Source: Candidatus Aenigmatarchaeota archaeon (lineage in GTDB: Archaea; Aenigmatarchaeota; Aenigmatarchaeia; PWEA01; JACQIF01). From it: DNA of 64,000 nucleotides. Below are positions 5,864 to 51,637 of this stretch, in pieces. A program made the position numbers and the translations under genes. The notes below the pieces were generated by a model. It was not told the origin of the DNA. It did not search any database and worked only from the letters and a program-made list of their open reading frames with translations. Location of the stretch: NCBI GenBank assembly GCA_016432325.1, contig CP066684.1, forward strand, positions 416,001 through 480,000, given 5' to 3'. Position 1 is the first letter of the stretch, and the number at the start of each line of letters is the position of its first letter.

Positions 5864-5895
5864 TTCAATGAATTTACCGCTCAGAAGGCCAAGAG

Positions 5896-5945
5896 GCGCA
5901 CGAAAAGATTCGCTTTTCGGCGCACCGAAAACCGACGTTTTCGGA
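5896..5945. repeat. Two-hairpin palindromic element (variant of the 8118/25667/51537 family)
   Basis: GCGCA-CGAAAAG-ATTCG-CTTTTCG-GCGCA-CCGAAAAC-CGAC-GTTTTCGG. Confidence 0.7.
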
Positions 5946-5957
5946 GGTGACCAGTAA

Positions 5958-6353
5958 ATGTACGGGAAAGGACTGACTTACACGCTCGAAGCAGTCATAG
6001 CGCTCTCGCTCGTCGCGGTTTCCATGATAGCGGTCTTCAACGGACTGACCGTTCCGCAGGGAGCCCAGTTGCGTTTCGGTGAAGAGAACGCCTTCTCGTG
6101 CCTTAAGAGCCTGGACAGCGACGGCAAGCTGCGGGCCGACGCGGTGGCGCGCAACGCAGGGGCGATATCCAACAACCTGATAGGGTGCATTCGCGGCTCG
6201 TTCAATCATACTGTGCAGGTCTGCCAGGGCACGTGCACAAGCGTGACTCTTGACAGGGACGAGGACGTCGCATCAGTGGAGTATTACATCGCCGGGCACA
6301 ACACGACAAACCCGACGCTTGTGGTGGTATACGCATGGTCTTCCCTAACGTGA
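5958..6353 (+). CDS. Minor pilin-like protein (class III signal peptide)
   Basis: KG/LTYTLEAVIALSLV; GGAGGTGA RBS; four Cys. Confidence 0.78.
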   Translation: MYGKGLTYTLEAVIALSLVAVSMIAVFNGLTVPQGAQLRFGEENAFSCLKSLDSDGKLRADAVARNAGAISNNLIGCIRGSFNHTVQVCQGTCTSVTLDRDEDVASVEYYIAGHNTTNPTLVVVYAWSSLT

Positions 6354-7125: not shown

Positions 7126-7590
7126 TCAGCAGACGTAGCCGCCGCCGGAAAGCGCGCAGGTGTAGATGGCTTCGCGTGGGCACGTCTTGCTCTGTATCTG
7201 CACGCGGGAAGGCTGTGTCGTTATGCCTGTGACCGCAAAGGTCTGCAGGTCTCCTGAACCCATGGCGACATTCGAGTTTGGAGGAGTGCTTTCCAAAAAG
7301 TCGACCTCGCTCGTGAATGTGACTATCCTGAAGTTGGTCAGGTTCTGCGTGCCCCTGTTGCGCGCCAGAACTGAAATCTTGCCTGCCGACGCGTCGTAGG
7401 TGGCTGCCGTGATCTCCAGTATCGCGCGCTGGCAGCCGCTGCTGAACTCTTCCGCCGCCTGTCCGGATTCGGTTATCTGTTCGCTCGTGAACGTGCGCGC
7501 GAAGACTGCGATGAAGGTCGCGACAGTTATCGTGAAGGCGATGAGCAAGACGGTTGCGATAAGAGGGCTGAGACCCTTCACGTTCCTCAT
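7126..7590 (-). CDS. Archaeal type IV pilin (major-pilin-like, Pilin_N/DUF1628-type N-terminus)
   Basis: KG/LSPLIATVLLIAFTI canonical archaeal pilin N-terminus. Confidence 0.9.
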   Translation of the reverse strand: MRNVKGLSPLIATVLLIAFTITVATFIAVFARTFTSEQITESGQAAEEFSSGCQRAILEITAATYDASAGKISVLARNRGTQNLTNFRIVTFTSEVDFLESTPPNSNVAMGSGDLQTFAVTGITTQPSRVQIQSKTCPREAIYTCALSGGGYVC

Positions 7591-7640: not shown

Positions 7641-8114
7641 ATGCGGCCCCAGAAGGGAATATCCCCGATTATAGCCGTGGTTCTGCTCATCGGCCTCACT
7701 GTGGCCTCCGCGGCCGTGCTGGTCAATTTCTACGCGCCCTTCCAGCAGGCCCGGCAGTCGGAGATAGAGCAGAAGGGTTCAACAGAAGCGGAATGCGCGT
7801 TCGCCTCCATAGAGTTCACGGACGACGACGTCGCGTCCAACCTCACGGCAAGCACGGACACCGTAAACGTCACCGTCGACAACACTGGAAGCGTGGACCT
7901 ATACGACTTCCAGATAACGGTAACGATAAGCAATATAGCCTACAGTTACGAACCCGACAACGTGACCAAGAGGACGGCCGCTGTGCCCATGAAACCGGGG
8001 GACAAGGTTGTGTTCGTGACTAACGTAACGGACAACCTGTCCGGAACGATAACGTCCGTGGAGGTCGTTGGCCGCAACTGCCCCAGAGCGGCGAGAAAGA
8101 AGGTTGACTTATGA
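7641..8114 (+). CDS. Archaeal type IV pilin
   Basis: MRPQKG/ISPIIAVVLLIGLTV; start moved to ATG 7641 downstream of TATA. Confidence 0.9.
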   Translation: MRPQKGISPIIAVVLLIGLTVASAAVLVNFYAPFQQARQSEIEQKGSTEAECAFASIEFTDDDVASNLTASTDTVNVTVDNTGSVDLYDFQITVTISNIAYSYEPDNVTKRTAAVPMKPGDKVVFVTNVTDNLSGTITSVEVVGRNCPRAARKKVDL

Positions 8115-8668
8115 GCATGTACGAAATATGCGATTTCGACATTTTCAAATGTCGTTTGAAAAGTTCGTACGGCGGGCGTACGAACATACCGAAAGGCCGC
8201 GGCCTTTCGTGCAAAGGAGTGAGCCCGCTGATCGCGACCGTACTGCTGATAGCGTTCGCCATAGCCGCGGCCGGCATACTCGCCAACTTCGTCCTGCCGT
8301 TCACGCAGTCCACTGTGTCAGAAAGCACTTCGCGGGGCAGCAGCGACATCAGCTGTTCGTACGCCAACATCATCATAGACGAGGCCTCATGGAACTCCAC
8401 TTCGAACACGCTCTCTCTTACAATCGAAAACAACGGCCGTGAAACCCTGAAGAACTTCAAAGCCTCCATCGTCAGAACGAACAACACCGTATCGACCCTG
8501 ATACTCGCGCCGACAGGCGCGGAGATGCAGCCCGGAGACATAGAGACGTTCACAAACGCGACAAACGTGGCGCCCTGCAGCGACATCAGCTCGGTCACGG
8601 TGCGTTCGGACACGTGCCCGACAGACGCCCGCCACGAAATACAGAAGGCATCCATAACAAGCTGTTAG
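8111..8668 (+). CDS. Archaeal type IV pilin; leader contains in-frame four-hairpin element
   Basis: KG/VSPLIATVLLIAFAI after a 34-aa atypical leader. Confidence 0.88.
   Translation: MSMYEICDFDIFKCRLKSSYGGRTNIPKGRGLSCKGVSPLIATVLLIAFAIAAAGILANFVLPFTQSTVSESTSRGSSDISCSYANIIIDEASWNSTSNTLSLTIENNGRETLKNFKASIVRTNNTVSTLILAPTGAEMQPGDIETFTNATNVAPCSDISSVTVRSDTCPTDARHEIQKASITSC
8118..8213 (+). mobile_element. 96-bp four-hairpin palindromic element (putative non-autonomous MITE/REP-like), in frame
   Basis: TGTACG[hp]CGACATTTTC[hp]GAAAAGTTCG[hp]CGAACATACCGA[hp]TCGTGCA; same scaffold at 25667..25759; mobility is inferred. Confidence 0.75.
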
Positions 8669-24622: not shown

Positions 24623-25249
24623 TCATGGCCTCCACAGCGTCACGCGCAGAGTGCAGTTGCGCGAATTCTCCGTCATCACGTAGCGGTCTATTGAAATCTG
24701 TTCCTTGGCGCCCGCCGGCTGGGCGCCTACTGTCAGGTTCGTGGACTGGACCGTGCAGTTGGAGCCGCCGCTTGTCAGCAGCTGCACGTAAAGGCTGTTT
24801 GGTCCTGTCGAGAGGTTGCCGCGCAGGTCTTTGGCCGTCATCCGCGTCAGCGCGATGAGCTTGTCATCCGCAAGGCGATGGTCTCCGTATGCCAATCCCA
24901 CGCTCTTGATATTCGTCGAGTTGTACCAGCCGTCGGGCTCTCCTGACGTAAGAACGAGCTGGTCGCTAAGCCCGATGAGCCTGTCCTGCGTTCTCCTGAA
25001 CTCCTCGGAGTCTGCCACGGAATGGGATATGGAAGACTCCGCGTGCAGGACGCCCGCTATCGATATCGTGAATATGACAAGCGCCAACACGACGTCCAGA
25101 GAGACGGCCTGTCCCTTTCCCGACAGAAGGAGGGAAAACTGAAACCGCGTTTCAGATTTTCCTGCCCCAAGGGCGGGAAAATCGTTCGCACGCGGCGAGG
25201 CCGCGGCCCCGCCGTCTTCAGCACGTCTGCACATTCGTACCGTCCGCAT
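24623..25249 (-). CDS. Pilin-like protein; start uncertain, leader filled with hairpins
   Basis: KG/QAVSLDVVLALVIF; TSGEPDGW motif. Confidence 0.72.
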   Translation of the reverse strand: MRTVRMCRRAEDGGAAASPRANDFPALGAGKSETRFQFSLLLSGKGQAVSLDVVLALVIFTISIAGVLHAESSISHSVADSEEFRRTQDRLIGLSDQLVLTSGEPDGWYNSTNIKSVGLAYGDHRLADDKLIALTRMTAKDLRGNLSTGPNSLYVQLLTSGGSNCTVQSTNLTVGAQPAGAKEQISIDRYVMTENSRNCTLRVTLWRP

Positions 25250-25796
25250 TCCAGCACTTCACCTCTATATTGTCACCCGTGTTGTTGACGTTCACGAGCG
25301 CCGTTCTCAGATCCGCGTCCTTTACCTTCGCCGTTATCAGTCTCGCCGATATTATAAGGGTCTCGTTCCTCGGCCCCGGCCACGTCATCTCCACCTTGCG
25401 ATATTTGCCGAGAACCTTGAACGTGGTCGCGTTCTGCACTCCCGCCCGGGCGGCTACCGTGATGTTCGTCTGGAAGCCCTTGCCGCCTATGGCCGCGGCG
25501 TCGATGGCGCCGGACACCTTCTCCACCTCGCGCTGCGCCGCAAACTGCTGGCGCGCCTTTTCGACGTTCAGGTTGCGTTCGTTGAGGGAAAATAATATGA
25601 TTGAAGCGAGAACAAGGACGATGCCTGCCACGACCATGAACTCGATCCCTGTTTGCGCCTTTCCCGTGCACGAGAAGCTTCGCTTCTCGGCATGTTCGGC
25701 CTTCGGGCCGAACTTTTCGGACCGAGTCCGAAAATGTCGGGACCTGTGGGTCCCGTACACCCGCAGGAGGGAAACCGTTTTCACATTCAATACCAT
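25218..25796 (-). CDS. Pilin-like protein (Q+1/E+5 class III signal); leader contains four-hairpin element
   Basis: KA/QTGIEFMVVAGIVL; start placed at ATG 25796. Confidence 0.78.
   Translation of the reverse strand: MVLNVKTVSLLRVYGTHRSRHFRTRSEKFGPKAEHAEKRSFSCTGKAQTGIEFMVVAGIVLVLASIILFSLNERNLNVEKARQQFAAQREVEKVSGAIDAAAIGGKGFQTNITVAARAGVQNATTFKVLGKYRKVEMTWPGPRNETLIISARLITAKVKDADLRTALVNVNNTGDNIEVKCWNADGTNVQTC
25667..25759 (-). mobile_element. 93-bp four-hairpin palindromic element, in frame
   Basis: Same scaffold as 8118..8213 with different stem sequences; flanked by CGGG on both sides (coding strand). Confidence 0.75.
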
Positions 25797-51516: not shown

Positions 51517-51637
51517 CCTTTCCACGCTTACCACCGTGTACGAGAACCAAAGGTTCTCGGCATGTCGGAAACGTTTGCGTTTCCGTACACGGTGCATGAA
51601 ACTGCCGTTTCATACCGCCTTTTCCACGCTTACCACC
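51517..51637. repeat. 20-bp perfect direct repeat enclosing a two-hairpin element (51537..51589) and a third hairpin
   Basis: CCTTTCCACGCTTACCACCG at 51517 and 51618. Confidence 0.92.

Follow-up and report, generated by a model that had tools for sequence, protein, structure and literature searches.

The single-strand transposases of REP/RAYT systems and IS200/IS605 elements read a conserved foot, a single extrahelical base and a stem defined by its structure. At IS200/IS605 ends and in their gene-less derivatives the enzyme reads an extrahelical base in imperfect hairpins that lie subterminally, and no target duplication is made. The protein-coding palindromic repeats of Methanocaldococcus jannaschii are archaeal and can reportedly lie in frame within open reading frames; neither strings of hairpin modules nor a bias to leader peptides is known to us among them. 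REP sequences and REPINs are short imperfect palindromes, often inverted doublets and mainly extragenic, with a conserved foot beside the hairpin, no target duplication and a presumed movement as single-stranded DNA hairpins (Bertels and Rainey, 2011; PMC3116915). The Ssn (GIY-YIG) nucleases act on NTS/SRM sequences, short bacterial hairpin repeats numbering in the hundreds, which are read on single-stranded DNA by a small enzyme (Chenal et al., 2025; PMC11893778). Rickettsia palindromic elements (RPEs) are short palindromic repeats that encode no transposase themselves (Ogata et al., 2000, as reviewed in PMC2229807). They lie between genes, in RNA genes and, fused in frame, at tolerant places of conserved proteins, and translation of one such insert was demonstrated in gmk (PMC2229807). 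The hairpin family described here shares with REP/REPIN sequences their short imperfect palindromes, doublet form, mainly extragenic spread, conserved foot, lack of target duplication and presumed single-stranded movement, with NTS/SRM sequences their short hairpin repeats, and with RPEs their palindromy, the lack of a self-encoded transposase and the range of sites. It is like the M. jannaschii repeats in being archaeal and able to lie in frame within open reading frames, and like IS200/IS605 ends in its imperfect hairpins with an extrahelical base and lack of target duplication.

The window, meaning the whole 64,000-nt stretch of DNA that was analysed, comprised positions 416001-480000 of a single 874,869-bp contig (55.9% G+C) of Candidatus Aenigmatarchaeota, the genome of a groundwater archaeon that was 90% complete by markers. 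The sole congener, groundwater MAG JACQIF01, was used as the comparison genome. Copies were searched by regex and then with a covariance model (R1) trained on 14 two-hairpin copies. The following elements were mapped in the window.

8118..8213, + strand: four-hairpin element A-B-C-A', 96 nt
Hairpins of the 8118 copy, + strand: A 8118-8141, B 8142-8162, C 8163-8185, A' 8187-8213
25667..25759, - strand: four-hairpin element of 93 nt, A-B-C-A' in the minus-strand reading
Hairpins of the 25667 copy (+ coordinates): A' 25667-25692, C 25694-25713, B 25714-25734, A 25735-25759
51537..51589, no strand given: two-hairpin A-A' element, intergenic, 53 nt, covariance model E ~1e-13
5897..5944, + strand: diverged two-hairpin element, 48 nt, covariance model E ~4e-6

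Both four-hairpin sequences read as an earlier note on this DNA had given them, and the two-hairpin copy at 51537-51589 and the looser one at about 5897-5944, also reported there, were matched by a covariance model built from other copies. As RNA, the 8118 copy folded into four tandem hairpins (-51.3 kcal/mol, z -4.05); the 25667 copy gave -69.5 kcal/mol (z -4.88). The A' unit of the 25667 copy was identical at 28/28 positions to a unit at genome 24719, and its middle part was 94% identical to a 6-hairpin element at genome 664134. The outer stem of the 51537-51589 element is lengthened by its flanks, CACCG/CGGTG.

The hairpin base was determined with RNAalifold and explicit pair counting. It consists of 3 bp TGY:RCA, one bulged A and CG:CG, above which stand a variable stem of 4-7 bp and a loop of 3-5 nt; the Y:R pair covaries (7 U:A, 6 C:G). 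The basic element is a head-to-head doublet of two hairpins, about 50 nt long and joined at CA/TG, whose halves share only the base letters, differ in their stems and each fold on themselves. In the four-hairpin form, two extra hairpins, each with a conserved base of its own (TTTTC..GAAAA and GTTCG..CGAAC), are placed at the central CA/TG junction, and further modules at this junction give six-hairpin forms. The strings found were A-B-C-A', A-B-F-G-C-A' (genome 127203) and a palindromic A-B-C-C'-B'-A' (genome 664134). Hairpins 2 and 3 form a nested module, since B and C also occur elsewhere, away from A units, and their proposed separability was upheld by other combinations such as A-B-F-G-C-A'. 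The letters that had been read as the fixed junction of a cruciform scaffold are the paired bases of each hairpin, and there is no four-way junction core. Lengths vary across the family (49-56, 97 nt and others, up to 135 nt) and are not generally multiples of three.

In the 14 two-hairpin copies 98.4% of cells were paired, with double changes in 10/18 pairs. This level was equalled in 0/500 shuffles of the doublets, and slid controls dropped to 25-55% paired. Of the earlier description of the stems as covarying and freely varying, the strong covariation stood and the free variation did not: the 5' arm follows the pattern R, R, A, A/C, S, C, or RRAA(S)C, in 48 units among which 33 different stems occur. 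Stem pairs comprised 247 Watson-Crick, 0 G:T, 3 A:C and 1 T:C, alike on both strands. At such divergence, structural selection on an RNA would be expected to leave wobble pairs in the transcribed strand; since none are seen, palindromy appears to be kept or made at the DNA level. An RNA-level element, which the earlier note had also allowed, is unlikely in view of the lack of G:U pairs and of any reverse transcriptase match.

About 30-34 loci were found in the 875-kb genome and 8-9 in the congener by regex and covariance model R1. Scanning beyond the window recovered further copies genome-wide with modules in other combinations, bearing out the dispersed, non-autonomous family of modular build that had been proposed. 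The left-half pattern was observed 6 times in the window (0.64 expected), and 46 hairpin units with the conserved base (24+22) were counted genome-wide, against 0-1 in shuffled genomes. Several unlinked copies were 90-96% identical across 46-79 nt, and copies at non-syntenic places in the two genomes were 87-90% identical, compared with 65-78% for genes. An exact-pattern scan of 596 Gb (185,579 species genomes) yielded 81 stretches. The congener was the only archaeal one, and the others were one site each in unrelated bacteria, with a chance estimate of about 40; the exact hairpin family is confined to one Aenigmatarchaeota genus among the 185,579 species genomes. A sister architecture with different base letters (TGC-T-CA..TG-GCA) was found in another taxonomic family of the class. 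No Rfam match was obtained at the gathering score across the whole window, and a full-text literature search gave no account of such hairpin elements in DPANN or Aenigmatarchaeota.

Both four-hairpin elements of the window lie inside prepilin genes.

8111..8668, + strand: prepilin gene, Pilin_N family, ATG 8111, KG codons 8213-8218 (pilin 1)
25218..25796, - strand: prepilin gene, class III signal KA/QTGIEF, likely ATG 25796 (pilin 2)

As had been noted, the elements (96 and 93 nt) share one orientation and frame in these reading frames and end 0 and 2 codons before KG/KA. In pilin 1, the Pfam PF07790 (Pilin_N) match begins at window 8213, exactly at the end of the element. The leader has 34 residues, against about 1-6 in orthologues, and no alternative in-frame start is present between element and KG. 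All four of the closest homologues can be aligned from KG on, with 57-67% identity across the aligned part. Three of them are orthologues (63-67% identical) with M-, MKSV- and MKMRKSV- before KG; the fourth (P0005) has a different, 20-residue leader. The syntenic locus of the congener (L044) has this same pilin gene upstream, then AAGGT, which is ribosome-binding-like, then ATG and directly the leader; both AAGGT and ATG are conserved. Without 8118-8213, pilin 1 would have the canonical leader MSKG/VSP. The first pilin gene of this cluster (window 7126-7590, -) is inverted relative to congener L044:1922-2476 (+).

Pilin 2 has a likely leader of 47 residues, with its ATG 4 nt after the stop of the upstream gene; the 129 nt from this ATG to GKA/QTGIEF include the 93-nt element. 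Its congener orthologue (L127), MQKG/QSGVEL, starts 5 nt after the same upstream stop and carries no element. Pilin 3 (genome 703852) has a 33-residue leader, compared with MQHRATKG/Q in the congener, and this leader holds a 51-nt doublet with an adjoining small hairpin, a composite seen again at two unlinked loci at about 90% identity. The pilin 4 leader (genome 546721) contains a 48-nt copy in frame. Two KGISP codon copies, differing only at third codon positions, were observed in the pilin 4 leader (L126, genome 546652-546830), where they flank a 129-nt in-frame insert containing the 48-nt family member. The proposed in-frame insertion into prepilin leaders was confirmed by the orthologous pilins, which have 1-6-residue leaders before KG.

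Five of about 34 copies are intragenic, and 4/5 of the copies within coding sequences lie in class III pilin leaders, which make up about 0.15% of coding sequence (estimated from ~38 pilin-like genes x ~10 leader codons). "Safe harbour", the term of the earlier note, is for this reason a fair one for the leaders. The emphasis on leaders was too strong, as they account for a minority of sites: the bulk of the family occupies intergenic spacers, 5' regions, upstream mini-ORFs and tRNA introns, and one copy is in PolB. The genome encodes a prepilin peptidase (A24, genome 151095-151436). In the frames used the coding copies encode basic peptides, which suit the positively charged part of a signal leader. 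The enrichment in leaders may reflect targeting of gene 5' ends or merely survival. From its modelled folding energy (-51 to -70 kcal/mol), a hairpin array that begins 7 nt past the pilin 1 start codon could lower initiation and silence the gene.

The congener was empty at three pilin leaders, at PolB and at 3/4 intergenic or 5' sites (6-hairpin site unscored). Copies are therefore regarded as insertions, because the orthologous congener sites are without the element; all three pilin leaders compared for empty sites were of this kind. Several outgroups were compared at pilin 1 only, and loss in the congener was excluded there only. No target-site duplication was seen at the clean filled/empty pairs (leader module, PolB), and no common target word or tetranucleotide at 26 insertion points. 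At genome 103685 and 653525 the leader-module sequence ..TTTACCG^CTCAGA.. carries an insertion, and at window 5870-5890 it runs on unbroken.

All eight copies in translated contexts (four pilin leaders, PolB and three upstream mini-ORFs) are multiples of 3 (54, 96, 93, 51, 48, 48, 87, 48) with open frames, against about 12/27 copies elsewhere. The expected 3n bias of coding copies was thus found; as a trait of the whole family it was not, being confined to translated contexts. Multiples of three and open frames are not required by splicing, which argues, at the level of sequence, that the coding copies are read through and translated and not spliced. In population contigs from four DNA runs of one study, possibly the source samples, the 8118 copy was run through unchanged. 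Contigs that extend into the 25667 copy agree with it, ending and overlapping within the repeat at ~25693-25720. No contig of the four runs skips either copy, contigs being assemblies that drop rare variants.

Spacer copies often lie 7-40 nt ahead of a start codon. A 162-nt spacer between convergent genes contains two doublets here, compared with 4 nt in the congener, and the 5' region of the histone gene and the region upstream of an AAA+/wHTH gene each carry an element here and are empty in the congener. The reverse case was also found, a congener hairpin insert in a promoter that is empty in the host genome. At congener L039:3486-3930 a multi-hairpin insert of about 135 nt was observed between two imperfect copies of the promoter-like TATTTAAACGC; the host counterpart, genome 164103-164420, has a single TATTTAAACGC copy and no insert. 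In PolB, a 54-nt doublet (genome 40417-40470) adds 18 residues directly before the KKRYA motif, and the congener gene (81% identical there) is exactly without the 54-nt insert. The congener PolB (L131) has its own in-frame 48-nt insert, composed of TTCGAA-type hairpins and absent from the host genome; it lies about 48 nt after the KKLPG codons and 40 residues upstream of the host's insert position.

Three upstream mini-ORFs of 29-42 codons contain copies and end TAA-ATG on the real start. The one in the window is as follows.

5868-5957, + strand: 29-codon upstream mini-ORF, holding the 5897..5944 element, with its TAA abutting ATG 5958

The gene that follows is pilin-like (MYGKG/LTYTLEAVIAL). 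A recurrent leader module was observed at window 5868-5960 and at genome ~653498-653600 and ~103658-103800. The module starts from a spare ATG in ATGAATTTACCG.. and ends ..GACCAGTAA-ATG, forming a hairpin together with a mini-ORF that stops directly against the true start codon; it harbours nested family elements at two separate positions.

An AAA_22 and winged-helix gene resembling Orc1/Cdc6 (L137, genome 664298-665600) has a 6-hairpin and a 2-hairpin element on either side. Upstream of this gene are repeated GTGAATA(C/T) motifs that are conserved in the congener, and because they recur and are conserved this region may be a replication origin. Another repeat of about 55 nt was found at congener L043:5129-5195 and at genome 25921, 204315, 630000 and 741013, with a cross-genome identity of 88-94% that far exceeds that of genes. 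GATC (observed/expected 0.39) and CTAG (0.46) are strongly under-represented genome-wide.

Family members were also found inside several tRNA genes. No tRNA was detected in the window by ARAGORN; tRNAs elsewhere in the genome are heavily interrupted, and a tRNA-splicing endonuclease gene is present. A T-loop intron at genome 851690-851830 encloses a doublet, and the congener tRNA has no intron there. The surrounding region, genome 851624-852100 (congener counterpart L037:2164-2994), was observed to hold two adjacent tRNA genes with hairpin-filled introns: one has a T-loop intron of about 140 nt, and the other has three introns with content wholly different between the genomes.

Candidate mobilising enzymes were searched for with control genomes, which gave matches. 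The partner that the earlier note had suggested, a co-occurring HUH/RAYT/IS200 TnpA, was not found: the 875-kb contig had no match to Y1-HUH (RAYT, Pfam PF01797). Likewise, no TnpB, GIY-YIG or reverse transcriptase was detected in this single-contig, 90% complete genome. An autonomous parent was sought between element pairs 0.7-1.2 kb apart and rejected, as these flank only aIF5A, histone and AAA+/wHTH genes. The idea of a restriction site was also rejected; the junction palindromes CATG and GTAC are not avoided in the genome.

The family is like REP/RAYT and IS200/IS605 in architecture, yet it was placed in neither. Unlike REPINs, whose halves pair into one long hairpin (PMC3116915), the halves of the present doublet do not cross-pair; it is a dispersed, foot-bearing palindrome without duplication, with copies also inside genes, no RAYT or Y1 HUH gene, and an archaeal host. 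Unlike IS200/IS605, it is accompanied by neither TnpA (Y1) nor TnpB and has no fixed tetranucleotide at the 26 insertion points, and unlike Ssn/NTS-SRM it occurs in a genome without a GIY-YIG domain. Assignment to MITEs did not fit: no duplication was present at clean filled/empty pairs, no transposase among the families searched was found and the element-flanked genes are housekeeping genes. The in-frame inserts in conserved genes that are absent from orthologues, as in RPEs, were found in PolB and three pilin leaders. RPEs differ in having one long stem of 105-146 bp (PMC2229807), compared with 48-135-nt strings of small hairpins here. The present family is archaeal, has no sequence relation to RPEs, combines a conserved base and bulged nucleotide with varying stems, and is strongly biased to cleaved signal leaders and upstream mini-ORFs.

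We consider it probable that the copies are mobile palindromes, non-autonomous and acting at the DNA level, of a family that only this Aenigmatarchaeota genus has. Three other readings were weighed against the same data. Hairpins near gene starts could be functional RNAs under selection, serving as translation attenuators or as mRNA-stabilising or processing signals. This would account for the strong covariation of the stems, the very stable folds (-51.3 and -69.5 kcal/mol) and the many copies 7-40 nt from start codons or between cistrons. It is nevertheless unlikely, given 0 G:U in 251 stem positions, rare mismatches without strand bias, doublets that are alike on both strands and asymmetric forms in both orientations relative to genes. 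Also counting against selected RNA signals are the copies within tRNA introns, within PolB and in the gap between converging genes, the presence and absence of sites between the congeners and the lack of an Rfam family match. A similarly low probability was given to the coding copies being archaeal introns that are removed by the tRNA-splicing endonuclease, leaving normal proteins. The endonuclease gene is present, family members do sit inside tRNA introns such as genome 851690-851830, which is absent from the congener tRNA, and exact removal of 8118-8213 yields the MSKG/VSP leader. All coding copies are, however, 3n with open frames, which splicing does not need; the copies in tRNAs are carried within the intron as cargo, with no part in the splice motif; and no complementarity exists between the flanks of the 8118 copy. 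A strict bulge-helix-bulge scan found none fitting the boundaries of the four coding copies, but it missed the control tRNA intron too, which makes its result weak evidence.

Least credible, and put at a very low probability, is that hairpins were built in place from local sequence by template switching or fold-back repair. The stems are perfect palindromes, and the stem of the hairpin at genome 665434, GTGAAT, matches the local repeated motif. Derivation of stems from their targets was largely refuted by the flanks, as only 2/44 stems matched their own flank compared with 1.4 expected from the flanks of other copies. Construction in place also leaves the base, bulge and RRAA arm that are common to all copies, and the near-identical copies, a few of them with short flanks in common, that occur at unlinked loci and also in the congener, without an origin in local sequence.

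Under the mobile-palindrome reading, elements would be moved by a trans-acting enzyme that reads structure on single-stranded DNA hairpins. Like REP/RAYT and IS200/IS605 ends, the elements would be recognised by their bulged base and conserved foot. Palindromy may be restored at the DNA level, either because one arm templates the other or because mobility needs a perfect hairpin. Insertions would persist only where they are harmless, in spacers, tRNA introns, mini-ORFs and a polymerase loop, and class III leaders would be especially tolerant owing to their removal by prepilin peptidase. An element in a pilin gene would pass through transcription, add 31-32 basic residues to the leader on translation and be cleaved off with it.

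Selfish palindromes inside protein genes are known mainly from Rickettsia, and the present family is their archaeal counterpart, with the same modules in tRNA introns and protein genes of one 875-kb genome. Its survival rule would be that copies stay where the product is discarded or tolerated (class III leaders, tRNA introns, mini-ORFs, polymerase loop). In practice, the inserts make pilin leaders look too long in predictions and mislead both start-codon assignment and tRNA detection in DPANN genomes. The family makes it possible to test movement without a RAYT-type enzyme and the origin of non-canonical archaeal tRNA introns. A more tentative proposal, which we hold as a possibility on the doubtful side, is that an undescribed system, either a new enzyme or a host replication or repair route, moves stacking single-stranded DNA hairpin modules in Aenigmatarchaeota without target duplication, into tRNA genes (where they become or enlarge introns), mini-ORFs, pilin leaders and protein loops. 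If true, one source of archaeal tRNA introns, and of expanded leaders and loops in DPANN proteins, would have become visible.
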